DNA of 36,013 bases from Psammoneis japonica (taxonomy: Eukaryota). Below, in pieces: positions 6,237 through 34,286 of this stretch (the first letter of the stretch is position 1; every line of letters starts with the position of its first letter). The notes below the pieces were generated by a model. It was not told the DNA's origin. It did not search any database and worked only from the letters and a program-made list of their open reading frames with translations. A program made the position numbers and the translations under genes. The DNA is taken from the NCBI GenBank assembly GCA_008632985.1, contig QPGO01000083.1:62001-98013 (forward strand), read 5' to 3'.

Positions 6237-7347
6237 AGAATGAGAAGGGTCAACGAATTCGACAGCTCGTACTTCTGCCTAAAGATCGCGCCCTAGCTGT
6301 AGTTCAACAAGAGTCAGCTAGAGCTTTTGTTCCTACGGGCCGAAATTTTCTTATCAGAGCCGGTAGGCCAAAGTACTAGGTCAAATTTGCTGGACACATT
6401 CCCCTACGGGACCAATAGCTCTCGATAGACCAATGTGTCACAAGCATTCTGTGTATCAGATACGAATCGCTCGCCAACCATTCGTACGAGTCGTCGCATG
6501 GTATGTACTCATCTCCACAAAGCCGAGCATTCTGATCCGTAGAACCCTGCTACTAGAGGGTAGTCTATCCTCTGTCTTTGTTTTGCTGGGACAGAGAGGC
6601 TGTTTTGGGCGAGGTGAGAGTGAGAGGAGAGAATTGCTCATGTCGGCATATCAATGCATTTGTTCTCGTCGTTCTAAACACACGAACTCAACCACCATTC
6701 GAACGCATATTCGTCTCACGGCATGTCAAGTACCGCCGCCCTCGTAGTCTCCTCTCATAGCAATTGCAAAGCTAAGACAACCACTGTCGTTGTGAATTTC
6801 TGTGCGTTTCCCGTTTCCAGTTGTGTATTTGAAAAGCTAAAAACTTCTACTACCAGGTCCTTATCGGAGCAAAATTCTGGAAACTGCTTGGCCAATAGAG
6901 AAAAGAGTCACGTCTGAACTTGAGGAACGGGCTAAATCCAGAATCCAGCCACATTGTGCTGACGAGACGGGAGCTTGGTCCATTTACCACCAGGCTGTTG
7001 AACAAAGTATTCATTGGCAGCGCGAATCACGTGTCCGCATTCCTGTTGTTGAAACAGTGGAGCTCCTTCTGTACATCCTCTCCAGCGGCACCCCTCATAA
7101 CAAAAAAGGTTTTTTGCCATAGAGGTATCGAACTCAACATTAAACGAACTTTTTCTCGTATCGTCTTCTGGCGGTGCTTCTTGAGCTGACCAACAGGCGT
7201 CTCGTACTGCACCTCTTGAGCATTCTTCATGTGACGTTCTTTTCCCCGCGATGCATGCATTTTCTGGACCTGCGATCCATTGACTCGAGCCATTTGGGTT
7301 TTGTGCTTTGAGACGCGCCGCCTTCGCACCTTCAAAAGAGGAAGATC

Positions 7348-8797
7348 TCTTAGTGGATCGTGTCATTCCTACTACTTCTACAGTACTTAGATGCAGCACA
7401 TCTGTGCTGTGCAGGATCTCTATCAGGTTATGAGCAACGCTTACACAGACGTGCAAGCAAGGCTCCTCTACCACTGCCGACAACACATTTTCCTCTCGTT
7501 TCGTTGTCGACGACACCGGCAGAGAGCGTTTACATCGTAAACTTTGCCGCTCTATCGACGACAACGACGTCTGCGTCTCGGATGCTGATTCACGCCATTG
7601 CTGTTTGTTTTTGCGGCTGCTTGCGTGGGTGTCAGCATGCCTTCTACGCACATCGCGATCTCCCTGGGTACATGCCACAGAGATCCGACACATGCTGCCC
7701 CTACGTGGTGGAACCGACATTGATTTTTATTTTCATTGTCGCTCACCATGGCCCCTGCTAACAGCACCCGTTCGAAAACGGCATCCTCTTGGCGGGACAC
7801 TCTGTCGTCACTCCAGGCCGCCACATCACCTGTGTCGGCCGACGACTCCCCCGTCTCTCCTCCTCCGGCGGAGACTGACCCTGCTTCTGCTGGTGACGCA
7901 ATGGTGGAGGATGCTTCGGTGCCTCACGATGCGCCCACAGCAGAGGATGCAATCGAGGCGGAAGCCACCATTGCGGCGAATGTCGCTGCTCCGGAAGCTG
8001 ATGCGAGCCCTGAACAGATGGAAACCCCTGCCTCTCTCTCGGAACAGCCGCCGCTGCCAGTGCTCCCAACCCTGCCTCCACGCTTGCCGCCTGCCCTGCC
8101 TCCTGAGTGGCCTCACACGCCTCCTGGCAATCCCCCGCAGCCTGAGGAACCTCCCGACCCTCCACACTTTCCTCCGACATCGCCTCGGGCTCTTCTCAAA
8201 ATGCATGAGAGTCATCTTGGCTCGGCTGTTGCCCGCATCCACGAACACAAACGGGCACTGGATGTCTCTACGGAAGAAGTTTCCAGGCTCAAGCGGGAGC
8301 TGCGTGACATCCGTTCGGTCACGAATGATCACGCCTTGGCCACCGCGGATCTCAAACATGCTCGTGATTTTGACCTCCTCCGCACCGAGGTTCAGACCCA
8401 AATGAAAGCAACTGCGGATGAAGCCATCGCTTTGGCTGGCGATGCGGCCAACAAAGCTTTGGCGACACGTGATGCCCAATTCCTGGCAGCTCTCAACAAG
8501 AAGATTGTTCTGGTTTATGAAGCCGCGGAAGCAACGATGCTCGAACGCATCCGTGCCACATCGACGAATGCACAAAACAACATGGCGTCTTTTGTGGCGG
8601 ACCAAACCAGCCGGCTGGAATCGGCTGCCTCGGAAGCCATCCGTGCTGTGGGTGACCACATCGGTGCCACCCGTAAAAAGTTCCAGGCTCGGCTCAAGCA
8701 CGACGTTAAACTGCAAACGGACGACCTGGATGTCTCCTGGTGTGGGGGGGTCTTAGTGGATCGTGTCATTCCCACTCAGACACAGGGATCTCTGTCA
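7348..8797 (+). mobile_element. Internally deleted mini LTR retroelement (Copia-type PBS; TRIM-like)
   Basis: Direct repeats TCTTAGTGGATCGTGTCATTCC...GGATCTCTRTCA at 7348-7425 and 8751-8797. 5-bp TSD AGATC at 7343-7347 and 8798-8802. PBS GGTTATGAGC at 7426-7435, complementary to the tRNA-Met anticodon arm as in half-tRNA-primed Copia. G7 polypurine tract at 8744-8750. Confidence 0.85.
7748..8750 (+). pseudogene. Truncated Gag-like ORF1 (Pro-rich N-terminus plus coiled coil)
   Basis: ORF MAPANSTRSK... lies between the PBS and PPT and runs directly into the PPT/3' LTR with no pol motifs. Confidence 0.6.
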
Positions 8798-9022
8798 AGA
8801 TCTGACAAAATGCTGCCATGGCCGGTTGCCACGAGTGCAATTGTGGATTGTGGCGGCTGACCGCTGGCTGCCGCAAGCGCAAAACAATCAAAATCACAGG
8901 TGCTCTGCGGCACTGTAGATGGAAGCCACGGGAAAGTCAGGTCGTCTGGCCATGACTCGGCTGTGGGCGGGTGGTGCAACCCAGAGAGCAGTGTCGCAGG
9001 AACAACTCCTGCAATCTTGAGA

Positions 9023-10666
9023 CTAAAACAACAGCATTGTCAGCAGCTTGTCATTCCAAACAACACACTGTCTGCCACTCTGTTGTGTTGCAAGAATCAG
9101 TTGCACGGCGCTGCATGAACTCCAGGCCCGCAGGTCACTGAAGCTGGCGTCTTCCAAGCCATCACTTGGAACAGCATTCCTGCTGCCACCCCACACCCTG
9201 CGACCCGGTGAACCAAAGAAGCTCTTTGTCCTTGCCTTCTGTTTCTTCTTGGGTTTGTCCAAGCTCTGGCAAGTCAGAGAGAGCTGTTTTGGCACTGGCT
9301 TGGGTGCTCCATCTCTGTCGACATCGTCCTCAGCTTCTTCATCAAAATCATCCAACAGGGGATGCAATCCAAGATTCAGAATCCCCTCATCACCATCATT
9401 GTTTAGAGGATCAATGAAGCCACCATCCTCACATTGGAAAGGTGGAGGGATCAATGCCGTCTTCTTCAACGTCTCGTCCTCTTCCTGTGAAGCCAGGCAG
9501 TTGATGCAGGCTTGCCTGCCTTTTTTCAAGGCTTGATGCTTGGGGGGTGGTTCTCATCAAATCCAACAACACCTTCATGCTCAAAAAGAAGGTTGTCAGG
9601 GTTGACGTCTCGTCCTCTTCCTGTGAAGCCAGGCAGTTGATGCAGGCTTGCCTGCCTTTTTTCAAGGCTTGATGCTTGGGGGGTGGTTCTCATCAAATCC
9701 AACAACACCTTCATGCTCAAAAAGAAGGTTGTCAGGGTTGACAATGTCAGCCCTGGTTGATGCCGGAGCTCGAATTCTTACAGCATGACTGCCTTCCAAG
9801 ATCTTGGCTTCCATGTGATGGGTCTTGACAGCGCAAGTAAATTCCACATGCAAAGCAACATAATTGATGCCATCGTCTGGGTCTGTCCATGCAAAAACGG
9901 AGGTCGTGAATGCCTTGTCAGTGTGAACTTTGAAGTGCAATGAAACCTGCAGCTTTTTTTGCATTTCGGATGCCAACACATCATCCATGCTGCCAGTGTC
10001 ACTGCCTTTCTCCTTCTTCTTGCCACTGGCAGGGACTTGGGTGGGAGGCTCAGATGGTGCTTTTTTGCAAGCCGCTGTTGTGGTGGCCTTCTTCTTGACA
10101 CTCGTCTTTGCCACGATGTCTTTGGCTTCTCCATCTTTGTCTTTGCCAGCGTTGCTGTCTTCTTCATCGGCTTCTTCCTCCTCGACTGCTTCTTCTTCTG
10201 CCACTGCCACTTCCTCCACAACGTCCTTGTCTTCTCCTTCTCCTTCAGCACTTCTGCCTTTTGCTTTCCCATTTCACTCTTTTCAGACTTGCACTTTGCT
10301 GCAAATGTCGCAAAATGCATGGGTTGCAAGCAAACAGCATGGCAAAATGACATCAACACATCACAACAGAAAAAGGAACGCACATCTGCTGATGCCGTCT
10401 TTCACCAGCTTTACAAAATGCTCACAGGCAGCTTGTCTATGTCCACCAATGGCTTTGTCTGAGTTGGAGTTCCTTTGGTGGCCTCTGAGGTTTTTGTGCA
10501 AGAAAGGATGAACCACGTCGTTGGCCTGGAACTTGTCTTTGATGCAGGCAGGTTCTGCATTGGAGGGATCCCACCCATGCTCTCCTTCAGTCAGAGTGAA
10601 CTGATTGAAGTGCTTGACACACTCTTGAGCTTGTTGTTTCTTCCAGCGGGGCACTTTCAATGACAT
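9023..10666 (-). pseudogene. Accessory ORF of the DDE transposon, disrupted
   Basis: MSLKVPRW...GWDP exon, probable intron 10383-10299 (GTGCGT...TTGCAG), acidic/Lys-rich linker, C-terminal domain AWTDPDDG...PPFQCED. Broken by a frameshift, a stop and a 136-bp duplication. Confidence 0.55.
9471..9742. repeat. 136-bp perfect tandem duplication (2 copies)
   Basis: 9471-9606 repeats as 9607-9742 (GTCTCGTCCTCTTCC...GGGTTGAC) with AC microhomology at the junction. Confidence 0.95.
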
Positions 10667-10849
10667 TGGCTCAGAACTGAGCAAACAAACGCTGAAATGA
10701 CATGAGTGTAAAATGAAAAATCTGAGCACAGTGGACACAGCGAGTGCTGAGCGTGGAATGAGTCTCAACATTTTTGGCACGCTTCGTTTTGTCGGAGAGC
10801 ACTGGCACATGTTCTGTTTTCCAGCCAAATTGGCCGGAAATCGATTTTT

Positions 10850-11305
10850 TGCCGGAAAATGGAATTCCGGCCAGAAATTCTTAAAAAGTCTGTTTGCGTT
10901 TTCCCGCCACTTTGATGCAAGTGATTGCCTCGAGAGAGGGAACTGCGAAGAATCCCATGGCAAAACACAAAAGAAGGACATCAGTGGTGCATAAAACAAT
11001 GGGCAAATTGAATGCAATGCTTCCATGTGAGATGTCACTGTCATCCAAACAAGCCGGAAAACCACTTTTAACAGCCCAAAACCGGCCTGTTTAAGTGCTG
11101 ATTAAATCTTGCAAAGAGGCATTGACTGAACCTGCCCTGTGATTTCATGCATCAGTTACACAGGTCTCTTGTGTGCTGCCATGCACTTCTTTGTGACATC
11201 CTCTTTCCTTGCCGTTGCTCGCATCAAAGTGGCCTGAAATCGCAACAAAAAATGCCGGCAAAATTGGCCGGAAAACCAAGTTCCAGCCGGAATTCCAAAT
11301 TCCGG
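10850..11305. repeat. Long imperfect inverted repeat between the divergent transposon ORFs
   Basis: GGAATTCCGGC (10861) pairs with GCCGGAATTCC (~11286). GCCACTTTGATGC (10906) pairs with GCATCAAAGTGGC (11221). CATGGCAAAACACAAAAGA (~10956) pairs with TCTCTTGTGTGCTGCCATG (~11166). Confidence 0.8.
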
Positions 11306-11675
11306 ACCAAATGAGTAATGTGCTCATTCACATTTTTTAAAGCAGCATGCACAACACAGCAAATGGTGTGTGAAGGTGTCATCAATGTTTGTGTCAACGA
11401 ACAGTCGCATCCACCACAGGTGTTTGGGGGGGTGCTGCCAGCTGGAGTGCCACAGAGGGCTGTTGAGCGATGGTGTTTGCAAACGCACTGGAATGCTGCA
11501 TGAAAGGCCACATGGCAGGGCCCTGCTCTGTCACCAGCAACATGCCAGCGGCTGCCGATTGAGAAGAAAATGAGACACAACACACAAAACGCAAAGCAAA
11601 AAACGTTGACCGACACGGCACCCGCACTGTTGTTGCTGCATTCTGTGTCATTCGCTGACCTGCAACACATCCGAG

Positions 11676-12846
11676 ATGATCACCCAAGTCATTCATGCTG
11701 GCATTGTCACTTGCATTGTGTCTCAACCGGTGTCAAAGAGAACCAAAATCTCCATTTGTGTGACAGAGGATGATTTTGCTTCGCTCGGCAGTGAAGTCAT
11801 GAATCGATTTCCGTGGACAGGAAGCGACACGGTCTTCATTCGGCGATGGGTCTCCCATTTTGTCATTGAACCGGTGGCATGTTCCATCACTTGGAAACTG
11901 CTCAACATCAATCAGCAGGAGCCTGATGATCCGGATGACAAATGTGCTAAACCGGTCCATCTTCTTTGGGCATTGTTGCTGCTTAAGATGCATGGCAGCG
12001 AACACGAGCTCGCAGGGAAGTGGGGTGCTGATGAGAAAACATTCAGAAAATGGGCCTGGATTTTTGTGGAGAAGGTTTCATGCTTAGAGCTTGAGGTGGC
12101 AAGTGGCAACACCAGCATCAGAAAAGTGTTCAACCAAGATGCCAACACAAGAAACTCTCACAACTCAGTTGCTGCTTTTTTGTTGCTGGCTGACATCTGA
12201 CGTCAGATGCTGTGGGCCAATCATTTTGCCGGAGACCAAGGGAATGATTGTGTTGCCACAGTTGATTCTGCAGATTGCAAGACAACAAATCAAGGGAAAT
12301 CTCAGAAGTCATTTCATTTGTTCAAGTTCAAGAAGGCGGGACTGCGATGTGAGGTCTGTGCGAACATTCTAACTGGCGATTTTTGCATGGATTCATGGGC
12401 CTTTTCCTCCCGGAGAATGGCCAGATCTTGCCATCTTCTGACACAGTCTAAAGCACAATGTTGAGAAGAATGAGCAGCTTGAAGCAGATGATGGATGTGG
12501 TGCAGAGGACCCTGACTTTGTAAAGACTCCTGCTGGCATTCGACACATGGAGCCAAAGGCAGTTGCCAGGGCCAGATCCATTGCCAGGAACAAGGAAGAG
12601 ACAGCCAATGACCGTCTCAAGCTCTTTAAGTGTCTTTCCAAATGTTTTCACCACAACATTGAACTTCACAGCCAACGCTTCCGAGCCTGTGCCGTCGTGA
12701 CACAGTTGTCTTTCCAGCATGGCAAGGGCTTGTTCAGCACAGCAGACGAGTGCGGCGCCCTGCAGAAAGCTGCCGATTTGAAGGATGTTCCTCTTCCAAG
12801 CACACTTGAGGATGATTTGCAGCAGAACAATTGTTCTCTTTTGTAA
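11676..12846 (+). pseudogene. DDE_Tnp_4-like (IS5/ISL2EU/Harbinger-related) transposase, hypermutated
   Basis: Motifs HLLWALLLLK, DEKTFRKWAW, TVDSADC (VDGTD), FKFKKAGLRCEV (GLRYEV), GEWPDLAIF, EADDGCG (EADDGY) and EETANDRLK (HETVNxRxK). Intron 12099-12206 has donor GCAAGT. Contains a frameshift and a TGA. Confidence 0.85.
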
Positions 12847-14227
12847 ACTGGGCTGTTTCTGAAAACATGCGATCATGCCCGATGCCGTGCGAACCAAGCA
12901 CCTGCCTTGCCCGAACCTTTTGCTGTCTTGCTTTGTGTGTGTGCATGTGGCGTGCATTCAGTCTCTGTGCTGCAACATGACATGAGTGCAATCAATGAGG
13001 CAGGTTTTGATGCATTTTGTTGAATCGGCCATCATTTGGTGAAACCGCCGGCACCGGGGACAAAAGGTTGACCCGCATCATGGCCAGACGACCTCTGACT
13101 TTCCCGCAGCTTCACAGAGTGAAAACACAGTCACAATGACATCTGGCTCATGGCTCATGATCACTTCTGTGAGTTAGCCAGGGTGGGGCCGGTTGGTCAC
13201 ACACGTTTGGGTTCGATCCAACCATGCAACCAGCCACACCCTGCAGGAAAAGCTGTTGGGGGATTGGTGGCGCGCGAGCAGAAGCAACAAAGCAAAAACA
13301 TGGCATGGTCAAAATGTTGTGAAGCACACAACAACAAGCAATGAGAAGAAACCCAACTTGACCCAGGAAAAGCACATAAATGTTATCCAATGGCTTTGTC
13401 ATTATCTGGAAATACCCGCTCGTAGAGCCGTGAACGGTGTTCGCGTTGTTCGCTATGGTGTGTTGGGCGTTTTGGTTTTCGTGTTGTTTGCCGATAGTTC
13501 ATCTGTTTTCGTGATAGTAGATGTTTTACTGTATACAATCTTAATATATTTTGAGAAGCGCTTCGCGACGACTCTGTTCGGACCGTTAAATGGAAATTTT
13601 TTTATACAGATTCCAGACTTTTTTCGGGGTGTTCTCAGACTTTTGAATAGAAAATTTTTATGTTATGTAAAAGCTTCAGAGAACAACATAAATTAATCTT
13701 CCCTGTAGACCGCGTAGATTTTGCACGGACGAAAATCCACAATCCACCGCATGTCAACTCACTCAGTAGTAATTCTACGTATATTCTACTTACACCTCAC
13801 ACACGCACGCGCGCACACTGAATAACCTCTTATGTAGTATTTATTGATCATAAGTCATTCATAGTCATAAAGAAAACACGTTCGTTAAACAATTCTTCCT
13901 TAAATAGTTGCATTATTTAACGTGGAAAAGTATTTATAAGTCGCGTTTTGCTTTGTATGTTGCACCGTACTGTAGATAGTAGAGATTCTACTTGCAGTAG
14001 TAGTACTATACTCTACAGTAGCTAGTAGTAGCTAGCAGTAGACTAATCTCACAAAACACAGAAAAAGAGCAATCCAAAGCAAATACGAAAAGAAAGTTTT
14101 AGTCGAAATAAAGCGACGATAACACAGGCACAGGCTTGTCCCCATTTGCCACGCCTAACGTGCTTTTCTGTTGAAAAAAGAACGATCAAAATCACTGCTT
14201 TTGATGCAATTTGAAACCGGAATAATC

Positions 14228-16868: not shown

Positions 16869-17244
16869 CTGGTTCTTCATGAATCTATAAGGAAGCGAAG
16901 ACGAGGGTGCATATGATTTACATGTGATGGAAGCAATACACAAATGCATGGTTTATTGGAGGATTTGTTTCGTGTTGATTTTGTATCAAGGAGCGAAGGC
17001 TTTCACATATTTCCAAGTCACAGAAAAATGCGGTAATAGCAAGCGAAGGGAAAAGCCAACACAAAGAAAGAAACGCATTGGTAGTAGAATAGCACATGAG
17101 CAAACCAAGGATATTTTAGAGAAGAAATTGCACAGGACTAAAAATGAATACTAGAGGTTGCAACTGGCTTGATGGGATCCTCCACGACACTCTCTAGAGT
17201 AGAGAGTGGAGGTGTGCATCATGCTTTGATCTTCTGCAGGCTGT

Positions 17245-17900
17245 GCTCGAGGCTTCTCGGCTCCAACCGCACGTAGCTTTCTCGCGCTTGACATGTTGTG
17301 AATCGCGCGTCATCAAACGGCAATGTTTGGCGTCTGCAAGAAGGGTGAATTCTGTGCCCAGCCATTGGCAAAAATGATGGAGTCTTCTGTGGGCTGCGAA
17401 CATGCAAGCTGAGCTCCGAAAATGTCACTGCCTTGCCCCACTCAATGAAACAATAAAAATGCCCAAGTTTCCTCCTGATGCACTCAGCACTCACCATGGA
17501 AAAGGCCAGGATGCAAAATCCAGCTGTTTTGATTGGCTGTTGACTGTGTGTGGTCCACAAGGCACCACACGTTGTCACATCCAGTGGATGTTGCCTCTTC
17601 TTCTTCTTTGCCACCGACAATTTCTGTTGCATGGACAGTGCAGCCACGAGAAAGCAATCACATGCACAACCAATGTTGTGCTTTTGCGGTTCTCTCTTGC
17701 TCACTGCATCCAAACAAATGTCTTGCATGGTCTCTTGTTGTGAAAGCTGTTTTCTGCACCAGCAACCAAGTTGTGGAGCACTTCATCTTTTGCATTAAAG
17801 CCAGTTTTCAGCATCATGAGCAGTGCCACCCCAACAACATCTTTGGTCAAGCTCCCACAAAGCCCAGCTTCATGGGCAACTTCAGCATGCTGCTCTGGTT
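17245..17900 (-). pseudogene. Decayed unknown ORF, paralogous to 33075-34100
   Basis: Shares TCAAACGGCAATGTTTGGCGTCT, CTGCCTTGCCCCACT and CAATAAAAATGCCC with 33140-33345. Peptide GHFYCFIEWGKA...RRQTLPFDDA. Confidence 0.45.
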
Positions 17901-18327
17901 GAACTTGAGTGAGGACATGCTGCTCCCAACATCAGCAGCAAACAACTCTTGAATGGAGCTTCTGACCATGCACTCACGCACCTGTCCAACCCTGCAGAAA
18001 CTTGGCTGTCAAGAGTGAACAGTCTCTAGAAAGTTTGCAAGTGGTGGGCCAATGTCAATGGCACAACTCTCACCGGAGCTTTGTTTGATTCCAAGCATTT
18101 GCGGCATCAAAGAAAATTGCAGCAGTGAACACAACAACTGCCTCAACCTCCTGACCAACAACAAAGACAGAGATGGCACACCTCATGCAAAGAGGAAGAT
18201 GACAGCCAATCTCCCTCTCACAGAAAAAAAACACTGGGCTGCCTCAATTGGCACTCAACATTGGACCCAGCAATGCAACAAACCCCTTTGACAGGGATTG
18301 CCCATGCCACAACAGGGTGGCGGGGCT

Positions 18328-18593
18328 TGACAGAAATTGAAAAAGAGTCAGATGGAAGGAAAACAACAGCCCTTGCTGCTGTCTAAACAGCAGATGTGTG
18401 CCTCCATGCAGAGGCCATTGCAGCGGCCAAGAGACATGTGTTGTGATGTTGGTGCTGCTGTTGTTGTTTTTGTGAGTCATGTGGCTTGTTGTGCAACAAT
18501 GCGTGGAGCCAGGAGCACAGATGTCTGTGTGTGACAAACCAATGTAGCACATGACAAATGCCACACAACTGAAACCCTGTTCAAATCCTGTCA
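18328..18593 (-). repeat. LTR of outer Copia
   Basis: Homologous to 20268-20513 and 24305-24550, with TG...CA ends. Confidence 0.85.
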
Positions 18594-20267
18594 CTCCTCA
18601 TTTTGCTTGAGGAAGCCACAGAAATGGATTCAAAGTTGGATTGGCTGAGAGCCTTGGGATCAAAGTTCCAAAACATGAGAGGATGGAGCAGGTTCCACAT
18701 TTGGGAACAACCTCAGTGTTTGCTGAGAATGTCAGCAGGGTGTTGTAAGAGCCTTCAATGAAATGAAATTTGAGGCAACCATCAGAGGCAATTGCCTCAT
18801 GAGTGTGGTGGCAGAACAAGAGGGTTGTGTGTCGTTTGTGCATCTTGGAGTGCAGGATGGTGGCACTGTCTGCAACTGACTTTTGGTCCCCAAACATGTG
18901 ACAAGTGCAGTGGATCACAATGATGGGGCAATGCAGCATGCAGCACAGTGCTGGCAATCTGCTCCATGCAAGGCCTTGCAGCAGCAAATTTGGACCTGCA
19001 AATTGCAGTTTTGATGACAACATGCTGCCATCAAGATCATGGGAAAAGTTGCAGCCAATGCAATGCTTGATTGGTCCGGTGCTCTTGAGTTTCAACTTGT
19101 GCTTCTCAGCAAGAGCATCAATGACGGCTTGAGAACCCTTCATGGCAAAGGCCAAGTCATCCACATGCACAGCCATGCATTCACAGCAATCTCCATTCCT
19201 GCTGCATGTCCAGATGTTGGGCTCACCATGGCACTGGAAGAAGAAGCCTCTTTGCACTCAAACAATTGGCAAAGTGTTTGTGCCACCTGAGGCCAGAGCT
19301 GTGGAGGCCATGCAGAGCCTTGTGGATGACAACAATGTGACCTTCCAATTTCCCAAATTGAGAACCCACAACAATGCACCGCTTCTCCTTGGTCATGGCT
19401 TTGAGGTGCACATTGCCAATGTCAGCAGCCCAGGTCTCCAACTTGTTGAGTTTGGCCCAAAAAATTGTCAATCCAAGGCTGCAGAGGAACACTGCTCCAG
19501 AGCAGACACTGTCAACTGGGACACATTGGTGAGGTGGCTGTCAGCAGTTGGTCATGCTTTGTGCAGGCTGTCATGTTTCACATCATGCACAAGGTGCACC
19601 TTGATCTTCTTGTGACCTGCAGGAGCACTTAAATCCTTGCAGTGTTCACAGCAATGGAAGATGGTGTGCTCATCAAGATGGGTCATCTCAAGGTCTGTTT
19701 TGTCTCCCCATTTGCAGTTGCCACTGTGTTTGTCAAGGGCCATGGTGTGCTTGCAGTGTGCCCACACTTGCAGCATGACACAGTGCAGAAGGAGCAGAGC
19801 TTGGCCTGGTTAGCCATGCAAAATGGCTTCTTCTGTCATCTTGCAATGGCACAAAAATGTCCCCATCTTTTGGCATCAAGAAGGCCATTCTCACGTGTGT
19901 GAATGGCACAAGTGATGGGGTTGTCCTTGGCAATGATGGCAAGGGGTTTGAATGTGATTTCCTCCTCTCTCGAATGGAGCATGATGTTGTGGCTCAAGCC
20001 TTTCCAAGAGGGGTCATGAGGTCTCAGCAGTTCTTTGTGTGTGGCATGATGTGGCACAACTTCCAGATGGTGGTGATGTCATCATCTTCTTGCTCAATGT
20101 GAAGAACAACATGGTTGCAGGGGCCAGGACTTGCTCACATTCATCATTGTTGATCATGGAGCAAACAAACTTGGTGAGTTCCAGGTTGTCACCAATTTCC
20201 CAACTGTGGTTCTCAATGTTTTTGACAATGTGGCTCTGCAGTGCTGTCCACCACCCTCCTGTGGCTG

Positions 20268-23200
20268 TGGCAGAAATTGAAGATGACTGGGTGGAAGAAA
20301 ACAACAACTCCTTGCTGCTGTCTAAACAGCAGATGAGTCTCCATGCAGAGACCATCACAGGAGCCAAAAGACTGGTGTCGTTGACATCGGTGCTGCTGTC
20401 ATTGTTCTTGTGAGCTGAGTGGCTCAAAAGCAAACTGCATCACGTGACACACATGGAACTAAGAGCACACACAATTGTGTGTGACAAACTAAAATCTTGT
20501 TCAAATCCTGTCACTCCCCAGTTTGCTTGAGGGGTCAACAGCAACAGATTCAAGGTCAGATTGGTTGAAAGCCTCGGGATCGAAGTTCCAAAACATCAGA
20601 GGACAAAAGAGGCTCCAGACTTGAGAGCAACCCCAGTGCTTGTTGAGAATGTCAGCTGGGTTGCGGGAGCCTTCGATGAAATGAAACTCGGGGAAACCGG
20701 AGGCAATTGCCTCACGCACATGATGGAACAAGAGGGTGGTGTGTTGCTTGTGTAACATGGAGTGCGGGATGGCAGCACTGTCCACAACCAACTTGTTGTC
20801 CCCAAACATGTGACATGTTTCACAAATGGGGATGCCAAGGCAACGCAAAGTGATGTGAAGATTGTCAATGGGTGCCTCTGTGAGGTGTCCATCAGCAACA
20901 AGAGTTGCGTCTTGTGCCATCCGTCATGTTTGACGTTGCAGATGAGATGCACCCTGATCTTCTTGTGTCCTGAGTCCTTGCAGTGTCCACAGTTGTAGAG
21001 AACCTTGCACTCACCCAGCTGAGTCATCTCAAGGTCTGTTGCGTCTCCCCTTTTGTGGTTGCCATTGCGCTGATCAAGGGCCAAGGCATGCTTGCAGTCC
21101 CGGGGCACTTCACACCCGTGCTTGCATCGTGGCACAGCACAAAAGGAGTGCAACTTGGCTTGCTGATTGGCCATGCAGAATGGCTTCTTCTGGTGCAGAG
21201 CTGCAGCCCGGAAGCATTTCCAGCCATTGGTCTTGAGCAAACCGTGTTCGCGTGCATGAATGGCACAGGTGACGGGATCGTCCTTGGCAATGATGGCAAG
21301 GGGTTCAGACGTGATCTCCCCATTCTCCCATTCAAGCATGACGTTGTAGCTTGAGCCTTTCCAAGAGGGATCATGAGGTTGCAATGGTCCTTCATGCAAT
21401 GCGATGTGTTGGAACTTCCAGAGGGTGGTGTCCTCATCTTCTTGCTTGATGTGGTGCATGATGTCATTGCAGGCTGGGACTTCCTCTCATTCATCATTGT
21501 TGACAGAGCAAATGAACTTGACTGGTTTGGGGTTGTCTTCAATTTTCCAGTCATGGTCCTCAACAACGGCTTTGATGGTGCAAGCTCTGTGGCTTTGTTG
21601 GTCCTCTTGCGGCTTCATGAGGAAGGTGCGTCCAATGATGTCCTCGGGGTCAAAGACCGGCATTTTGGGCATCCTGATTGCATCCCCATCTGGTGAATCC
21701 AGTGAATCCGCGGAGTCATGTTGGGAGTTGATGATGGGTTCAGCTGATTTCTTGTCAGGAGGGTCAAGATGCAGGTTTGGGGTGGACGGATCACGGGCAG
21801 AACATACGTTGGAGCAACAGAGAATCTTCTGGGTGTCATCAGAGAGGATCTTGAATGTCATCTGATGACCGACATGTTCAGCAATGCCAACAAAGTGACC
21901 ACGCAACTCGCAGGATTTGGACAGCCAGTCAGAATTGTCGAGGTGGCAACACGCAGGTTCCCACCATTCAAAGCGCAGGAGCGAGCTGATGTTGGGCAAG
22001 AGAAGATGCTGTAGATTGCCAGGCGGCAGAGGCTTGCACTCTGTGACATTTGCCAGGATGAGGTTGTTGTCCCTTTTGTTGTGTGCATCAGTGGGTGGTG
22101 CAGTGGTTGAGGCAAGATCATGAGTGTTGGCATGCAAATTGACATCGCCATCACTTCCAAGATGGAGGTTGTGGAGGCTGACAGCTTCCAACTTGTGGCA
22201 GTTGCCGGAACAAGGGGTGCGCAATCCAAGGATGGCGGCCTTGGTGGACTGCGGCAGGCTGTCCCAAATGCACTGGTGGTCTGGCAAAATGCGGCACCAC
22301 TGTTCCTGGGTGAGAGAAGAACTGTGGGTTTGAGCAGCACAAGCCTGAATGATGTCAATGTCACTGTCAATGTTGAAGAACACATCATCATCAGGGTTGT
22401 CCGGAGCCAGGTCATGTGCGCAGATGGCACAGCATGGGGCGCGTGGAGCCTTCTTGGGAATGAACGTGCTGTCACACTTTGCCACTGCTGAAAGTGGGAG
22501 CCCACAGCACTGTTTGTGTGAGAGGCCTCTGCCATTCTGCGTGCAAAACTGATCAGCTTGGTTCTTTGTTGAACGAAGTTCTTCCACAGGATGAATGGTG
22601 TTCTCAAGCATGATGTGTTTCTGGCCAGCAGAGAAGTGGTCTGCACTTGGAATGAGAGCTTCAAACTTGCAAAGCTGGTCCTGCCAGTGAAGTGTGAAGG
22701 CACAGGTGGATCCTTTCCAGGTGCCATCACCAAGGCGAGCAGTGGCAAGATGTGTGAGAAGAGTCGAGGACTCCATGGATGTGCAAGCAGATGCAAGGGC
22801 GCACTTGGACTCATGACACACTGCTTGAGCATCAGAGGAGCCAACATGTTCACAAACAAGTGCCTTGCCTTTGTCATTCTGCAAGATGCATTCAAATGCG
22901 GCGAACATGTGCTTCTGTTGTTCATTGAACAGGGCCTTGTCCTCAGCTGCAGAGGGCTTGTACGTTGGGTCGAGAATGCAGTCGATGTCCTGGGAGCGGG
23001 CCTGTGCGATGACAGAGGTGTGCCACGTGTGCCACTGTTTGTCGGACTTGAGAGTCGTGAAGGTGAGGGGTCATGTTTGATGCCTCATTTAAAGTCACGC
23101 ATGGGGTCACATGGTTTTGGGGGCATTGAGCCAGGAGTGGGAGCAGATGGTGCTGCACCCATGGAGAGGGATGCTGCGTGCTTGGGACTGAGATGACAGT

Positions 23201-24550
23201 CAGTGAACTCCTCATGTGTGAACAAGTTGGGGTTGTTGCCAACATCAGCACCACCGCACGCTTTTGCCATGTGCAGACTAGTCAATGCAGCCATCTGTGC
23301 TTTGCATCCATGTGGCAAGGGCATTTGGTTTGTGCCGTTGTTGCAAACCAGGGCATCCAGTTGTGTCGGAGTAAAAGTGAAGAGATTCTGGTGCAAGTCA
23401 GTGCTGTCAATGTTGAGGGTGGAGCGCAATGGACTGTCTGTGGCTTGATTCAGAACAGTGCCTAAAATTTGTTGCTGCCTGGCGAGAATCATGGTGCAAC
23501 CGTGTGGGTGTCAGGACTGACCAGAGTCGGAGGGTGAGCTTGAAATGACTTGAAACTTGACTTGAAGTCTTGGACCATCTCATGAGTCAGAAGCCACCAG
23601 GCTGTGATGTCCCATTCACAGTCAAATGCCAAGCTTCCTGTCCGGTCCGCAGAGTTGTGCCGGCAAGTCCGAACCTGCAGCTGGCGATGCTTTGGGTTGC
23701 CTGAGAGCAGAGCAATGGGTTAAAAACCCCTGCTGACAAGCCAGTCAGAGGTGGACAAGACCTCCAAACCGTTCTCATTTTACATTGGTTGGATGACCTG
23801 ATCAGGCTGGCCAAATTTGGCACTGTGGAGGGATGAACAAATGTGGGAAATGTGCACCCTCGCCCCAACGCAGGCTGTGATCACGAACTGCTTCCTCCCA
23901 CAGTTGTCCTCATGGACCTTGTAGAACTGCAGAAGACCAGCAATCCGGTGCAGATACGAGGCAGTGGACTTGGCGTGCGTGGAGCAGGGCCAGAGTCAGA
24001 CGATTGTGCAGTGTGCACGTGAACGCATTGGTCTGTCTGCCAATCAGGGTAGAATCCACTGCAGGGAATCCAGAATCTCAGATGTCTGAGAGTTTGGGAA
24101 TTCCTGACCAAACAAATGTCGTCCGTTGAACAAAAGTGTCCAACGACGGCAGGCATTGGATGAATCCAAACGTGTGGGTTCAATCCAATGTCCAGCAGTG
24201 AAGAAGGCAGGTGTGTGCTTCCACCACCAATGTTGCACGTCGTCGAAATTTTCCGATGACGATGATGAATGCTCAATGGATGAAAATGAGCGAGACTGTT
24301 GATCTGACAGAAATTGAAGATGACTGGGTGGAAGAAAACAATGACTCTTTGCTGCCATCTAAATGGCAGGTGAGTCTCTGTGCAGAGACCGTTGCAGCAG
24401 CTGAAAGACTGGTGTCATTGATGTTGGTGCTGCTGTTGTCATTCTTGTGAGCCAAGTGGCTTGAAAGCAAACCACATCACGCAACGCATGCGGAAATGAG
24501 AGCACACACAATCATGTGTGACAAACTGAAATCTTGTTCAAATCCTGTCA
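20268..24550 (-). mobile_element. Nested, internally deleted CoDi-type Ty1/Copia element
   Basis: 246-bp LTRs at 20268-20513 and 24305-24550. TSD GGCTG at 20263-20267 and 24551-24555. PPT AAACTGGGGAG. Gag DFK*GIKHD...DKGKALV; pol FEWWEP, FVGIAEHVGH, LEWENGEITSEPL, VKHDGWHK, FGDNKLVV, HHVREAIA. Protease, integrase core and most of RT are not seen. Confidence 0.92.
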
Positions 24551-24626
24551 GGCTGCACAAGGAAAGCGCACCCGACAATGTCCTTGGGATCAAAGACTGG
24601 CATCTCAGGCATCCCAGCAAATCAGC

Positions 24627-24690
24627 AAAATCCTGCTCAAATTCTGTCACTCTTGATTTTGCTTGAGGAAGCCACTGAAACATGTTCGAA
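24627..24690 (-). repeat. Fragment of a further PPT/LTR junction of the same Copia family
   Basis: CTCAAATTCTGTCACTCTTGATTTTGCTTGAGGAAGCCAC matches 18580-18620. Confidence 0.7.
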
Positions 24691-26267
24691 GTCAGAAGAA
24701 AGACAATGATTCTGCTGTCCAGTTCCTGGCACACAAGGTGGAGTTGCCAAATCTGAGGAATTGTGGCAAGCTCCTGTCCACACCTGTTCTCCTTTTCCTG
24801 TCATCTTCCCACTGGCATTTTGAGCCAAGACTGCCACTGGATCTGGCCACACACCTGCTTGATGCCCTCCCAGAAGCCCCAAGATGGCAGGGCATGATTG
24901 TCTTGTTGAAGGTCTCTCAGTGAAGTTGGAGCTGGACGAGTGCTGGGAGTGGGGGTCAACACAAATGCTGCTCCTTCTGCCAACACCAACAAAGCCATCA
25001 AAGTCAGAGCCAAGATGCCATCTGTCTGTGCTTCTTGATGGCCAATGCACTCCAGCAGCTGTGCACATGTGTGAGTGTGTGCTGCACAAAAAACAGACAA
25101 TTCTCTTCAATTTTTGCTCAGTCACCAACTTGCCACATGATTGCTTCATTGAGTGGCATTAAAGAACAGTGTCTTCCCTTGCACATTTGCCAATGTTTTG
25201 TCACACTTGCAAAAACCGCTGCAGCACACAAAAACGAGTGGCTGCTTTTCATTTCCCGGCGTTTTCATTGTGTGCTGGTTGCATTGCTGCACAATGGTTC
25301 ATTGACTTTGGGAGCAATGTTCTGTTTGTGCTTGTGAGCAAATGAGTTGTCAAAACACAACAAGTGAGTTTGAGGTGCATCTGCAATGTTGCAAATCAAA
25401 CAGTTTTTCTTTTGGCTGGCACAAAGAGCAATTTTGAACCATTGACAAAAGTTGCACAGTTCACAGGCATGCCACATGTGAAACTTTGCATGGAGTGACA
25501 CACTTTTTTGTGCAAGTCACCACAGCGGTGTGCAGTTGTTGTTTTCAATGGGTTTTCTTGATTTTGTGACTGCAGCAGTGGCACCAAATGACAAGCATGT
25601 GGAGCAAACACAACATGTTTCATGAAGAAAATGTGGTGAGTTGTGGTGTTTTTCATGCCCAAAACAGACATGTTGCATTCACAGGATTTTGCATGTTTTT
25701 CATGCACCACAGAAAGCCAGGGCACAAGGTCCCTGAAACAGATCTGTGTGGCACAGAAATGACCACACAGAGTTGAAAGCATTGACCAAGAAGAGGGTGC
25801 AAAAATTTTGCACTTAAAAGTTGGTTGCTGAAATCTCTGCAAGTTTGCAGCTGCTGCACTGAACAAGAGAGAAATGGGGCTTGCAAACAAAACAAAATTT
25901 TGTTGCTCTGATGGCATTGTGTTTTGTTCTCATGAAGCGGAAAGCAGCCAATGCTTTGTGCCGCCAATTTGCTGTTGTGCTGCAGGTGTGCTGTTTGTTG
26001 CTTGTGTTGGGAGTTTGCTTCTCACCAATCATTTGGCAAAATTCCATCATTGGATGATGTCTGCTGCATGGGCTCTCAACAAAGTGTTGGTCAAAAATCT
26101 GAAAACAGAGCTTTGAAGCATTTGTGAATGGAATCATGTTGCTCAGACAAACACTGTCATGTGGAGTGTCAATGGTTTCAGGGGAAAAGCATTCCTTGAG
26201 TCTGAGGCATCAGCCAAGCAGAGAAGCACAGCAGAAGCACAAGAAAAACATCGGCCCAAACCCTTTT

Positions 26268-26288
26268 TGTGTGTGTGTGTGTGTGTGT
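26268..26288. repeat. (TG)10 microsatellite
   Basis: Direct reading; flanked by T runs. Confidence 0.9.
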
Positions 26289-26799
26289 TTTTTTTTCAAC
26301 AAAAGAAGTCCATGTGATTTTGGACCAGTGCACATGGCTGTTGTTGGGAACAGGAAAAATTGGCAGCAAAGACAATGGAGCATCATGAGACCAAATTTGC
26401 CAGAAGACATTGCTTGTGGTGTCAACCACAGCTGGAGGAGATGCTGACAGAGAAAGATCAGGGAGAGACTCCAGGGGACACAGAGTCTGCTGCATTGTGA
26501 GAGGGAGCACATCAAACAAGCCAGTGTTCAACCTGATGTGCAAAAACTCTTCAGACTCCCAATGATGTGCATGAAAGGACATGCACATCTGTGGCAAGAC
26601 TCTGCCCACTGACCCAGTGGAAGCTGCAGTTCAGAGGTGTCATCTTCACAAAACAAGGAACACAATGCTCAACGCCATTTCCAAGCACTGTTGCAGATGG
26701 AAGTGCTTGCTTGACTGGGCTCAGAGAAGATGTGCTCCTGAGGAGAGCGTGCTGGCCATCCAGCTTGAATCTGTCCACAGAATGACCATTGGGCAGAGC

Positions 26800-29700
26800 A
26801 GCATCAGACATGGCAAGAGCTCAGAGATGCAGACAGCAACAGCTCACCCAGCGCACTTTGCGATCTGAAAACAGGCCAGAATCTGGTGACACACATTGTT
26901 GAAATTGATGTGTGCAGTTGTGCAAACAAGAAAGGAGCAAAGAGAAATGAACCATCAAGACTCATGAGGCAACTTGTTTGAGTGCACATCATCAAGAAAA
27001 CTGATGCCAGTGCCCAGATGAAATTGAGTCCAAACGACCATGATCTGGGACAAAACTTGAGGTTGGCCTGCACCATGCCAATGTCAAAGGAACTACAGAA
27101 CTTGAGCAATGCACTGCTCAACATCCAAAGATTGGAGGCCTCTGCCTCCCGGAGCACAGGAGCTGCATGGGGCATCTCTCTCAGTGTTGGCTTGCAGTTG
27201 TGGCTGCACTTGGCATGAATCACACTCACTGCTTTCTGCCAAGTCTCCAATGCAAAAGCTCCTTTTTTGAGAAATGGGTGTTTGGAAAAACACATGCAGC
27301 TGGCAACAAACTGCAGGCAAGATGGCAAGTTCACACCTTGTGTTTTGTTGATCTAAAGGGCACAACTGGAGGAACAAATTGAGTTTTCTGAGTGCCCGCT
27401 GGGAGCTTGTGATGACCGAGTCTCTTGTGTGAAGAGCACACTGGCAGTTGTGTGCTGGAGCACTTGGTGGGGTGATCTGTTGAGCACACTTTAATGTTGA
27501 GCTCTTTGTCATGCAGATGGAGGTGGGGCTTGCCATCATCAGAGAACATCCACTCAATGGAGTGAAAGGAGCAACACTTGGGCAACTCAAGCTCATGATG
27601 TGCAACATTGAGAAGGTTGCACCAGAGTTGATTGTCCTCCTTCCCTTTTAGAGAAAGGACTCCCTTGGATTGGTTTTTTTTTTTGCACTGGAGTTGCACA
27701 TCACCTGGCACTGGCAGAACATGTCAACTCAGCAAAATCCGAGATCCCAGTTTCAAGTGCTCTACAAATGAATCCTGGTGTGACTTTGTGTGCATGTTGG
27801 ATTGCTCTATTGCTGAGTGAGTTCTTTCTAGACAAGATCTGCAGTGGGGTGAATCTCATCACTTTGGAGCTGCAAAATGTGATGATCCAAAGCACTGTTG
27901 CATGACCCAATTTTGCTGTCTCCAGCTCTCACTGCAGTTTGCAAATGGAGAGCACTGACAGACACAGAGAAGCAAGGAAAAAGAACAAGCAAAGCTGAGC
28001 AAATGTTCTGTGATTGACCAGTTGCTCATGTGATCCAGAAAACACAAGACAAGGCCAGCTGCGTCCAGAGCCACAGCACTGTTTAAATCTGGCATGTTGC
28101 AGATGATGAGCTTTGCCTTGTGCTGGACGATGTTCAGCCCAGTTGTTGTGTCATCTCCTTGGCAATGTGTGGCATGTTGTGTGAGAGTCAAGGCCTGTTG
28201 AGCAGCACCAAAACAGTGTTCAATGTGCCCACCAGTTGGTTTGCAGGGGGCATGGAATGAGCCTGCGGACAGCACCATGTGGGGACAACCTGCCATGCCA
28301 CCAATTGTCTGCTGCATGAGTTTTCATTTGTGTGCTTGTGCATGGAACAACAGGTTGTCAAAGCAAAACACCTGCAATGGCAAAACAATGTGCCTTGGCC
28401 AATGTCTTGCAAGATCAAGCAAATGAAAGATGCGAGTCAGGATGTTGTCACTCTGCCATGGTTCCACATTTCCACCCAAGAAATGCTCAGCCTCACACTC
28501 AGTTTTTTGTGCAATGACAGTGCACAGTCCAACCTTTTGGACATCATGCAGCTCAATTTTCCCAAAGTTTTGGTTGCACGGTGTGGCAAACATGGCAAAT
28601 TCACCCAAATCAACAGCGTCCCCATGCATGACAACATCTGCTCTGCACTGATGTGGGAGTCTCCTGTTTTAGCATCTGGGTTGGTGGGCTTGAGTGTGGA
28701 GCGGCTGTGCTTTTGTGTCAGTCTCCAAGAACCTCTGTCTCTCTGCTCTGGCAGTTTGCTTGAGATGGCTTGTGAAATCAACCTTGGCAGCAGCACAAAA
28801 AGACACCAATCTTGGAAGCCATTGCTTTTGGAAATGAAGTGCAAGTGGTGGCTGTGGGCACACCACATCTCAGAGTGCCTGCACACGATGGTTTCCTTTT
28901 GCCATTCTTCAAGTCAGCACAAATGGCAAAGATCTTGTTCACAATGTCCCCAAAGACAAGTCATCCCATGGCTTGCCCCAGCGACTCTGCTGGACACTTG
29001 CACCCCCTCCTCCCACCATCATTGTGTTGTCACTGCACTTCTCATTTTGCACTTGTTGTTGATTGTCAGACGGAGAAAATGTGATGGCTGTGCAACCATG
29101 TGCCCACTGGTGGCACAAACGAGGGACAATGGAGGGGGAAGAGCAAATGCGAGCATGTTTTGTGTGCAAAAATTGACAAGTGATTTGCAGTTTGCAGCGT
29201 GCCTCAAGAAAACATTCATCGTTTGTTCACGCCTCACATTCTGCATGTGTGAAAAACAAGAACAAGTGTCTGGGGCCAAACAGAAAGTGGGAAAGGCAGT
29301 GAATGTTGAAAAGTTGGGCAGTGCCAACTTGACAAAGGAAGAGCAAGAAGAAGTCCCAGACTTTGGCACCAATGCTTTCAAGTTTTGTCAAGCACCTGCT
29401 GAAAACCCTGCTGCGTCCAGCGGTGCCTTTTCTTCTCTTGTTGGCAAGCAAGGGCTTTTTGGGCACTTTTTCAATCACCCAAGCTGGGAGAGATCATGCA
29501 AAATTCATCTGAGACATGGTGACTGCAGCAATTTTGGCTTAAAGATGCTCAACTGAATGAACAGCAGAGTTCTCAGAACTTTGTGGCTGAGGTTGCAAAA
29601 GCCATCGTCTGTGCCCTGGAGCTGCCCCCCTGTGGAAGATTTGTGGCACTGCTGTTCTGCTGCTTGGCACTGTTTTGTGGTGCCATCACATCTCTGAACA

Positions 29701-29960
29701 TTGCAGCATCTTTCATCCTGCCATGTTGTGCCACTGCAATGGGTTTGTGTGCAACACCTGCGAGCCTCACAAGCAGCTCACAGAGGGCCGGGCTTCTTCA
29801 GTGTCACCGAGGTTACCCAACAGGAGCAATGTCCTTTCTCAGCTCTGCTTGCAATTCTCCAAAATGTCAAGCTGTCTCAAGCTGGATCTTGCAATTTGCA
29901 AGCCCTGGTTTTGTGTCATTATTTGAAAACAATGCTGAGAGCACCCTGACGGTCATTGGT
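26800..29960 (-). pseudogene. Heavily hypermutated, unidentified coding remnant
   Basis: Colinear minus-strand protein-like fragments (MTVRVLSALF..., DAVDLGEFAMFATP..., QQTIGGMAG..., ELELPKCCSFHSIEW) separated mostly by TGA stops and frameshifts. No family recognised. Confidence 0.3.
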
Positions 29961-33074: not shown

Positions 33075-34100
33075 GCTCCGAGGCTTCCCGGCTCCAACCA
33101 CGTAGCTTTCACGCACTTGATAGTGTGAATCTCAGCGTCGTCAAACGGCAATGTTTGGCGTCTACCGCTCAGGTTGTCGACCCAAGTTGCAAGGGCTCCC
33201 GTTCACAAGACGGGTGGATACCGAGACACCAGACATTTGCAACTGGGAGAAGAATGATGGAGCCTTCTGCGCGGTTCGAGTATGCAAGCTGAAAGTCCGA
33301 AATGGCGCTGCCTTGCCCCACTAAATAGCACAATAAAAATGCCCTAGCTTCATCCTGATACAGCCAGCACTCGCAGGGTGCAAGCTCCGGCTGTTTCAAA
33401 TTGGCGCCGTGCATTGATGTTTGCTTCTTCTTCTTCGTCACTAATCATTTCTGATGTAAAACAACAGGATGGGACATTTCTTACAGTAGCACAGGCTTCA
33501 TTGCTTGATTGGAGGCACTGACAAGACCGCCACGGGGGGCTAGACCGCAGGTCGGCCCTTCGCACACATTATGGTAGAATTCCTTTCAGAGCTTTCGCCA
33601 TAGTTTGGAGAAAGAATTGAATGTGTCTTGTTTTGCCGAGAGTAGAAAGGCAAAGGTGTCATCATTATAGCTCGCGAGATTATGGTTGAAGGTTTCTCCC
33701 CACTTGGTCAAGGATTGCATGTAACCCATCTCTTGGACGAATCAGCTCCGGCTCTTGTCTCTTGTGTCGTTGTTTCCTACTTGTACCAGTAGGCACTTGG
33801 TAAGCTGCAGCGACTTGTCTAGATCAACCGTAGTTTGCGATGGATCCTTCTCTACACGTGTCCCTTTCGATGCATAATAGTCGCGAGCACTGTCTCGAAG
33901 ACTGTCCAAGCCAACTCGTATCCACTTGGAGCTACGAATGGGACTATTGGCAATGATCAAAGCCATCGTATCAACGTCGTCAGACGAAGTCGACAGCAAG
34001 GGACTGATGAAATGGTGTGCACGTCGCATTCATCGGTACAGTAGTTTCTTCTTCTTCCTGAAAAGTCGCCCTGCAAGATTCCAATATATTTCGCATCGTA
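33075..34100 (-). pseudogene. Decayed unknown ORF (TpA-intact paralog of 17245-17900)
   Basis: Long minus-strand frame with scattered stops (…MALIIANSPIRSSKW…MGYMQSLTKWGETF…) and nucleotide homology to 17245-17620. Confidence 0.45.
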
Positions 34101-34286
34101 AGGAGCTCTTGTGTAAAAAAGCCGAAAGACGGAATCTTGATGGACTCAAAAAAACGAATCTTTCCTCGCACATTCAACATGCTGCAACCTGCATCCCACG
34201 CAATCAAGAGTTGTCGCAAAAAGCAAACAGGTGGAAGGAGGTGTCAAAACAACGTTGACAGCAGCAGACAAATCAGAACACGCACC

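Follow-up and report, generated by a model that had tools for sequence, protein, structure and literature searches.

A natural process that converts A:T to G:C pairs in double-stranded chromosomal DNA, at one dinucleotide and in parasitic sequence only, has been reported once, in 2026 and in one alga. In April 2026 Mettrop et al. described TpA hypermutation of integrated viral DNA in Bigelowiella natans (bioRxiv 10.64898/2026.01.13.699255). In that study two integrated viral regions acquired 231 new mutations, of which 230 were A>G or T>C; all GC-biased changes fell on TpA in the authors' words, and mutations were found in only some of the lines. The excess of new mutations, measured in living lines, was episodic and about 1000-fold. 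The genome also has 324 TpA-depleted coding sequences, enriched in DDE endonuclease and reverse transcriptase domains, and an ADAT2 homolog was proposed as the enzyme (bioRxiv 10.64898/2026.01.13.699255). Here we describe a TpA footprint in a 36,013-nucleotide stretch of Psammoneis japonica (assembly GCA_008632985.1, contig QPGO01000083.1, positions 62,001 to 98,013 of the forward strand), the whole of which is called the window below. Two long blocks of the window are nearly devoid of TpA: block A, with a decayed DNA transposon, and block B, with a copia-like long terminal repeat (LTR) retrotransposon. Our reading, to which we assign a probability of about 0.8, is that a chromosomal process specific for 5'-TA-3' has converted A:T to G:C on either strand, near saturation, over the repeat mosaic of block A. 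From sequence comparison, this mosaic appears to combine an orphan multi-copy open reading frame (ORF), a dead PIF/Harbinger-type transposon and a further repeat. The process is strand-symmetric, acts after integration and on both classes of transposable element, has sharp edges and depends on sequence context. The kind of system is already in print for one alga; the host lineage and the saturated state are new here.

TpA-poor blocks in the window

The window was scanned for TpA in sliding 1-kb windows and with the full list of its 824 TpA positions. The region 8751-13380 (4630 nt), described as erased of TpA in the initial annotation of this DNA, contains 28 TpA, while 298.9 are expected from base composition, an observed-to-expected ratio (o/e) of 0.094. 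TpG and CpA are exactly equal in number, 469 each (o/e 1.61 and 1.63, respectively), and CpG occurs 133 times (o/e 0.48). The stop triplet TGA is found 109 times, compared with 19 for TAA and 5 for TAG. Outside the TpA-poor blocks the o/e of TpA is 0.64 ± 0.08, with a minimum of 0.50 (53 overlapping 1-kb windows). At this background ratio 191 TpA are expected in the region, and the Poisson probability of the observed number is about 2e-49. The erasure is thus confirmed, and the block is longer than first described. It extends from about 7760 to 13377 (5.6 kb), starting some 1 kb further to the left. On the right the block ends sharply: the last gap between TpA spans 13175 to 13377, and density is normal beyond. 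Coordinates and counts of all three blocks are given in Table 1. The genes between these sharp-edged blocks have TpA o/e values of 0.5-0.8, and the G+C content of the blocks is 0.49-0.59.

The sequence of block A was compared with public run X1, which contains 88% of the sampled words of 6500-14500. Four Logan contigs of this run cover 8747-9274, 10038-10647, 11022-12334 and 12583-13293 and differ from the window by one letter in 3162 nt; the word-depth of these exactly matching contigs is 56-74. The agreement indicates that the TpA-free sequence is not a quirk of this assembly. The word search of public runs with 6500-14500 listed no RNA datasets containing the region.

The DNA transposon of block A and its relatives

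ORF 11610-12200 has 1666 homologs at E ≤ 0.001 and 242 at E ≤ 1e-10 among 1.84 billion representatives. Pfam models were scanned against 18 of the 150 listed matches (the longer ones together with the top matches), and PF13359 (DDE_Tnp_4) was found in four of them. Two of these, P0097 (2.5e-11) and P0133 (1.2e-6), satisfy the curated cut-off, and the other two are just under it. In tblastn the homologous proteins cover about 11745 to 12747 of the window, so that the cut-and-paste DDE element proposed earlier for the erased region is supported through its homologs. The pseudogene has two exons and a frameshift in the second (Table 1). It also has an in-frame TGA at 12439, where six of seven relatives have Arg; this is a CGA>TGA change of the CpG-decay type.

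The ends proposed initially, 9018 and 12966, make only a 6-base inverted match and are replaced here by the best inverted-repeat pair, 8922-8956 and 13077-13113. One mismatch pair between its arms is CA versus TG. The triplets adjoining the arms, ATG and ACA, could possibly be a 3-bp target duplication ATA in which TpA was resolved in two ways. PIF/Harbinger elements make target duplications of 3 bp, usually TWA, and typically have two genes, the second ORF being a Myb-like DNA-binding protein. The window element seems to have the same two-gene layout: a second conserved ORF, in pieces, is common to the two closest relatives, L001 and L002. Neither its window version nor that of L002 matches a Pfam family. 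The five Tyr residues of the L002 protein align to C, F, H, H and H in this minus-strand ORF. Taken together, the comparisons support a decayed, two-gene, PIF/Harbinger-type DDE cut-and-paste transposon, with corrected ends, as the putative element of block A. Inside it, the two copies of a perfect 136-bp tandem duplication show no TG/CA discordance; therefore the duplication post-dates the erasure or was homogenised.

To obtain relatives, metagenome contigs were scanned with an alignment of 15 homologs, and 80 loci encoding transposase relatives were found. The TpA o/e is 0.36-1.08 in 79 of the 80, and therefore the family is not TA-poor by nature. The sole exception is L076, a metagenome contig of 1067 nt with five TpA (o/e 0.08) and a CpG o/e of 0.82, in which two conserved Tyr codons are kept. 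L076 is a second erased copy, from the environment, and by its composition shows the same process in another genome.

Four alignment columns that are mostly Tyr among the relatives (70/73, 37/51, 51/54 and 22/25 loci) read CAT, CAT, TGT and TGT in the window; conserved Tyr has thus become His twice and Cys twice. There is no Tyr in 373 aligned codons of the window transposase, compared with 2.4% in the 150 listed homologs, and Cys and His are enriched instead. On the coding strand, TAY>CAY represents a T>C change and TAY>TGY an A>G change, and both directions are present inside one gene. The changes CGT>CAT and CGA>TGA are present in the transposase as well. The splice donor was compared at the position 57 nt after the first codon of the [FY]RKW motif, which is carried by 71 of the 80 loci. 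GTAAGT is found there in 32 relatives, GTGAGT in nine, GTATGT in one and GCAAGT in none; in ten others the donor lies 3 or 6 nt earlier, and 19 lack one there, several of these being intron-less. The window reads GCAAGT (12099-12104) at exactly this conserved donor position. A change from GTAAGT had been presumed at 12099, and the relatives bear it out as TpA>CpA. As judged by these loci, the comparison shows the TpA loss of block A to be derived and not ancestral.

The copia-like element and action after integration

Three repeat copies in block B led to a complete element at 20268-24550. Its direct LTRs with TG..CA ends and its 5-bp target duplication are Ty1/copia features, and RVT_2 is recognised via homologs. 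None of 40 ORFs of block B, including those of this element, matched Pfam at E values up to 0.01. The two LTRs differ at 42 of 246 positions without any gap, and 40 of the 42 differences are transitions. Thirty of these transitions form 15 adjacent TG/CA doublets, nine in one direction and six in the other. Two further sites have TA in one copy and TG in the other. When 42 transitions were placed at random in 20000 simulations, the mean number of doublets was 1.6 and the maximum was 7. Each such doublet records a self-complementary step, TA or CG, that was resolved in opposite ways once the copies had separated: one copy received TG and the other CA. Since the LTRs were identical at integration and are now 15 doublets apart, the change took place in chromosomal DNA and on both strands. 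It follows that the process is not tied to reverse transcription or RNA. Other paralog pairs in block B have 15 doublets in 542 bp and 29 in 636 bp, while the host segmental duplication described below has three in 2006 bp and none in 588 bp. A 5'-truncated second copy of the copia-like family is located at about 18324-20216.

The initial annotation had proposed action on chromosomal DNA in situ and a mutator that is not specific for retroelements. The LTR pair of this one insertion, with its GGCTG duplication, bears out the former. The latter holds as well, as both the DNA transposon of block A and the copia-like retroelement of block B are affected.

Strand symmetry and sequence context

Counted in 400-nt bins, TG and CA number 546 and 538 in block A (P = 0.83 against 1:1, heterogeneity P = 0.62) and 1501 and 1337 in block B (53:47, heterogeneity P = 0.84). 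Both products had been claimed for the region 8751-13380, and they indeed occur there without strand bias (469/469, and 546/538 in the binned count). There is no sign of the one-sided outcome that is expected from editing of sense RNA. Along the LTR the order of TG and CA outcomes is random by eye, with 8 runs compared with 8.2 expected for this small sample (9 + 6), which points to independent single-site events and not to one processive sweep.

In blocks A and B together 70 TpA survive, 17 in TTAA and 18 in CTAA/TTAG. These contexts make up 35 of the 70 survivors but only 68 of 718 background sites (Fisher P 1.5e-15). ATAT is absent from the survivors and is found 61 times in the background. 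Counted per strand, survivors relative to background are 2.6-fold for TAA, 1.2-fold for TAG, 0.64-fold for TAC and 0.18-fold for TAT. Again, in one LTR the three remaining TpA are all in CTAA, and two of these are already TGA in the other LTR. The process favours sites in which the A is followed by a pyrimidine and acts slowly at TAA, so that loss is greatest at TAT and least at TAA.

Flanks, repeats and CpG decay around block A

Two stretches at the sides of the transposon, 8803-9018 and 12966-13380, had been taken initially as non-transposon flanks into which the signature spreads. They do carry the signature, with one TpA where 9.7 are expected and two where 24.4 are expected, respectively. 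However, about half of each lies inside the element bounded by the inverted repeats, and the rest is multi-copy: 7204-9009 is matched by as many as 13 distinct X1 contigs and 12923-13825 by as many as 21. The flank DNA is therefore transposon or multi-copy repeat, and the claimed spread into other DNA is not sustained. Summed word-depths are 255-836 on 7204-9009 and 551-2598 on 12923-13825, compared with 56-74 for the single exact contigs, but depth is not copy number, and the multi-copy call rests on the contig counts.

Within the left part of block A (7760-8921) the TpA o/e is 0.12 while the CpG o/e is near normal at 0.86, so the erasure of TpA is separable from CpG decay. Across three unrelated pieces of the block the TpA o/e is uniform (0.12, 0.09 and 0.07), and the CpG o/e values are 0.86, 0.47 and 0.36. 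In most of the blocks the CpG o/e is 0.23-0.48. CpG decay as the whole source of the TG/CA excess is ruled out: it cannot remove TpA or Tyr codons, and the left part keeps its CpG. TG/CA doublets at 7649-50, 7905-06 and 8326-27 distinguish other X1 copies of the left repeat from the window.

A 26-bp direct repeat (7348-7373 and 8751-8776, 1403 bp apart) is identical at 25 of 26 positions, and its sole difference is TA outside the block (7370) and CA inside. One X1 contig joins 7323 to 8800 through 20 other letters, and some copies may lack the 1.4-kb piece. Such X1 joints (for example 7323>8800, with a side of 37 and 85% likeness) were considered as an empty site and rejected as too short and too loose. 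The multi-copy sequence contains a 370-aa ORF (7748-8860), which matches no Pfam family at the default cut-off and for which neither a homolog of comparable length nor an atlas lead was found. The erasure begins near the start codon of this ORF, at about 7760, and the repeat extends to the left to about 7204. On the right, 13378-14158 adjoins block A and has a G+C content of about 0.40 and a TpA o/e of about 0.8. This sequence is itself strongly repeated, with as many as 21 contigs of run X1 at a single site, yet shows no TpA depletion; therefore being repeated is not sufficient for erasure.

Proposed mechanism and alternative explanations

The adenine of TpA would be deaminated to hypoxanthine and read as G, giving TA>TG or TA>CA as seen on one strand. 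The enzyme may be a polynucleotide adenine deaminase of the ADAT2/TadA type, directed to silenced repeat or foreign DNA or to its chromatin. Its role would be genome defence, by destroying Tyr codons and GTAAGT donors, with ordinary CpG decay adding stops (CGA>TGA). In this transposase every conserved Tyr is removed and the splice donor is changed.

Several observations weigh against this reading. It is based on fixed differences in one 36-kb window, with no mutation observed in progress, and run X1, whose library type is unrecorded, may be the source sample of the window itself and is not independent DNA. Adenine and thymine chemistry are inseparable by sequence, because an A>G change appears as T>C on the complementary strand. 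Doublets arise from ancestral CpG too, and CpG is depleted in most of the blocks, so that only part of the doublets can be credited to TpA; the direct TA-versus-TG sites in the LTR pair are only two. The leftmost 550 nt of the multi-copy sequence (7204-7759) are normal in TpA in this copy, and therefore targeting does not simply follow repeat boundaries. For the transposon, no Pfam model was matched by the transposase pieces or by other ORFs in 9000-12900 at E values up to 10, and the family assignment rests on the homologs. Nor was a canonical TWA target duplication found at the 8922 and 13113 ends: the flanking triplets are ATG and ACA, and even ATA is not TWA.

It is hardly credible that no mutator was at work, the family being TA-poor by nature or TA being removed by selection on codon use or UpA avoidance. 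All genomes under-represent TpA somewhat, and the background of the window is itself 0.64, but 79 of the 80 relatives have normal ratios (0.36-1.08), and conserved Tyr codons, the splice donor and non-coding parts are all affected. Moreover, the gene is dead, with a frameshift and a stop, so coding selection cannot act. An artefact of sequencing or assembly, for instance if modified bases at TpA were read as G or polishing introduced errors, is also very improbable. Base-caller errors at modified motifs are known in general, and the assembly and the confirming run may share one sample; against this, contigs of a second assembler match 3162 nt with one other letter at word-depths of 56-74. A miscall on one strand would give conflicting reads and not a clean TG here and CA at the next site. 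The transposase also has a frameshift and CpG-type changes, and the unrelated metagenome contig L076 is in the same TpA-erased state.

Editing of transposon RNA or cDNA before integration by an ADAR- or APOBEC-like enzyme, carried into the genome by retrotransposition, would fit the retroelement among the affected elements. ADAR-type enzymes also favour U before the edited A, as noted in the Discussion of the preprint (bioRxiv 10.64898/2026.01.13.699255). We nevertheless give this explanation very little weight: the DNA transposon is equally affected, TG and CA both arise within single genes, and the LTRs of one insertion, 15 TG/CA doublets apart, contradict it. Unlikely, though considerably less remote, is a modification of the thymine of TpA, for instance oxidation by a TET/JBP-type enzyme to 5-hydroxymethyl- or 5-formyl-uracil, which mispairs with G and gives T>C. 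As sequence cannot separate A>G from T>C, the symmetric outcomes agree with it too, and the context effect reads equally well as loss of ATA/GTA and retention of TTA. The only published account of the signature proposes adenine deamination, the chemistry we prefer.

Other features and host genes

The features of the window are collected in Table 1.

Table 1. Positions of the TpA-poor blocks and of the elements, genes and repeats identified in the window
Feature	Position	Strand	Basis or remark
370-aa orphan ORF in multi-copy sequence	7748..8860	+	Pro/Ala-rich N-terminus, helical-looking remainder
TpA-poor block A	7760..13377	.	TpA 31 versus 336.5 expected, o/e 0.092; TG 548, CA 544
Region of the initial annotation	8751..13380	.	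TpA 28 versus 298.9 expected; TG 469, CA 469
Triplet adjoining left arm, ATG	8919..8921	.	sequence display
Left arm of best inverted-repeat pair, candidate terminal inverted repeat	8922..8956	+	32/36 aligned positions match right arm
Second conserved ORF, in pieces	9194..10681	-	common to two closest relatives, L001 and L002; E 8e-25 to L002 ORF
Perfect 136-bp tandem duplication inside the transposon	9469..9740	.	repeat search
Transposase pseudogene, exon 1	11745..12098	+	homology to relatives starts at about 11745
Intron, 108 nt, GCAAGT...CAG	12099..12206	+	gap of 32-36 residues versus intron-less P0097 and P0143
Transposase exon 2, first part (VDxxD region)	12207..12380	+	homolog alignment
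Transposase exon 2 after frameshift at 12381-12387	12388..12747	+	homolog alignment
Right arm of best inverted-repeat pair	13077..13113	-	pairwise search, E 1e-08
Triplet adjoining right arm, ACA	13114..13116	.	sequence display
TpA-poor block B	17460..29920	.	TpA 39 versus 811 expected, o/e 0.048; TG 1512, CA 1345
Target duplication GGCTG, 5 bp	20263-20267, 24551-24555	.	directly outside both LTRs
Copia-like LTR retrotransposon	20268..24550	-	LTRs, 5-bp target duplication and RVT_2 homologs
LTRs, 246 bp, TG..CA ends	20268-20513, 24305-24550	-	repeat comparison
527-aa ORF	21490..23070	-	PF07727 (RVT_2) in 2/20 homologs; no direct Pfam match
Block C, weaker, partly depleted	34100..36013 (window end)	.	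TpA o/e 0.24

Block C has two long ORFs without a Pfam family, and its surviving TpA favour TTAA (6/29). Its partial depletion may reflect a younger target or one that was less exposed. With TAA and TAG lost, both strands of blocks A and B contain stop-to-stop ORFs of 200-500 aa in several frames; one example is a set of three overlapping ORFs, each longer than 300 aa, within 7434-8860. Gene finders will therefore over-call genes in TpA-poor blocks, where long ORFs are mimicked without TAA and TAG. Such blocks also escape Pfam, which matters for annotation: none of the 40 ORFs of block B and none of the transposase ORFs were recognised.

ORF 158-2008 on the minus strand matches PF25192, the diatom pyrenoid shell protein (PyShell), at 6.7e-50, and its closest database match has only 46% identity, so the collection searched does not include the proteome of this species. 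Other genes in the window are one sulfatase and two paralogous beta-propeller genes (PF09826). Diatoms and haptophytes account for most PyShell homologs, with others in some pelagophytes, dictyochophytes and alveolates (bioRxiv 10.1101/2023.10.25.564039). Judged by these genes, the host is a PyShell-bearing alga, apparently of the diatom/haptophyte type.

The two PF09826 genes and about 0.7 kb downstream belong to a segmental duplication (14224-16996 and 30194-32797, 88-92% identity), and a TpA-poor block follows each copy. Its homology weakly (67.6% identity) reaches the edge of block B (17248-17492 versus 33079-33372). As one copy adjoins block B, spread into DNA outside transposons was looked for here: among about 10 TpA in the unaffected copy, two are kept and about three are TG or CA in the other copy, the rest being transversions or ambiguous; beyond about 17620 the transition-tolerant alignment is unreliable.

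Comparison with known systems

DNA transposons and retrotransposons are silenced alike by the process. Its saturated footprint in a distant PyShell-bearing alga and in environmental contig L076 suggests that the system is widespread and not a curiosity. The present work adds two useful tools. TG/CA doublets between the LTRs of one insertion provide an assay within the genome, and the preference for TAT over TAA is a rule of context that can serve as a yardstick for candidate deaminases.

The likeness to B. natans is close. In both, the changes are almost only A>G or T>C at TpA, occur on both strands and are confined to chromosomal blocks of foreign DNA. Both also have TpA-poor clusters rich in CpA and TpG, and in both DDE and reverse transcriptase genes are depleted. 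There are differences as well. The mutations in B. natans arose de novo in mutation-accumulation lines, in single-copy inserts of a giant virus and a virophage. Its giant-virus insert is only mildly depleted so far (Rho 0.45), whereas here the changes have become fixed and approach saturation (o/e 0.05-0.09). Both classes of transposon are targeted in the present case, and the host is PyShell-bearing and not a chlorarachniophyte. An effect of the 3' neighbour is visible here and CpG decay runs alongside, unlike in the B. natans account. The available preprint text mentions neither diatoms nor stramenopiles, and a literature search with thin coverage of subscription journals found no published account of the TpA signature in diatoms.

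ADAR and APOBEC editing is similar in its deaminase-type transitions, neighbour preference and parasitic targets. However, these enzymes act on RNA or single-stranded cDNA and leave strand-biased tracks, whereas the present changes affect both strands of a DNA transposon and of integrated LTRs. Methylated CpG in silenced transposons decays to TpG and CpA as well, and such decay is seen in these very blocks, but unlike the process described here it cannot remove TpA.

Repeat-induced point mutation (RIP) of ascomycete fungi is the closest classical analogue but runs in the opposite direction. Like the process here, RIP makes dinucleotide-specific transitions in repeated chromosomal DNA on both strands, leaves sharp, skewed blocks and kills transposons. 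It converts CpA to TpA, however, and its products are AT-rich and TpA-rich, while here TpA is destroyed and G+C rises (0.49-0.59). A duplication trigger and a premeiotic stage are features of RIP; the process here is known from fixed sequence alone. Tentatively, and with slightly less than even confidence, we suggest that microalgae with red plastids (diatom/haptophyte type) share the TpA adenine-editing defence of Bigelowiella. It would be an old and widespread counterpart of RIP with opposite chemistry, directed at transposons of every class and at viruses and running to saturation, with efficient editing of TAT and TAC, poor editing of TAA, and independent hits at single sites on either strand.

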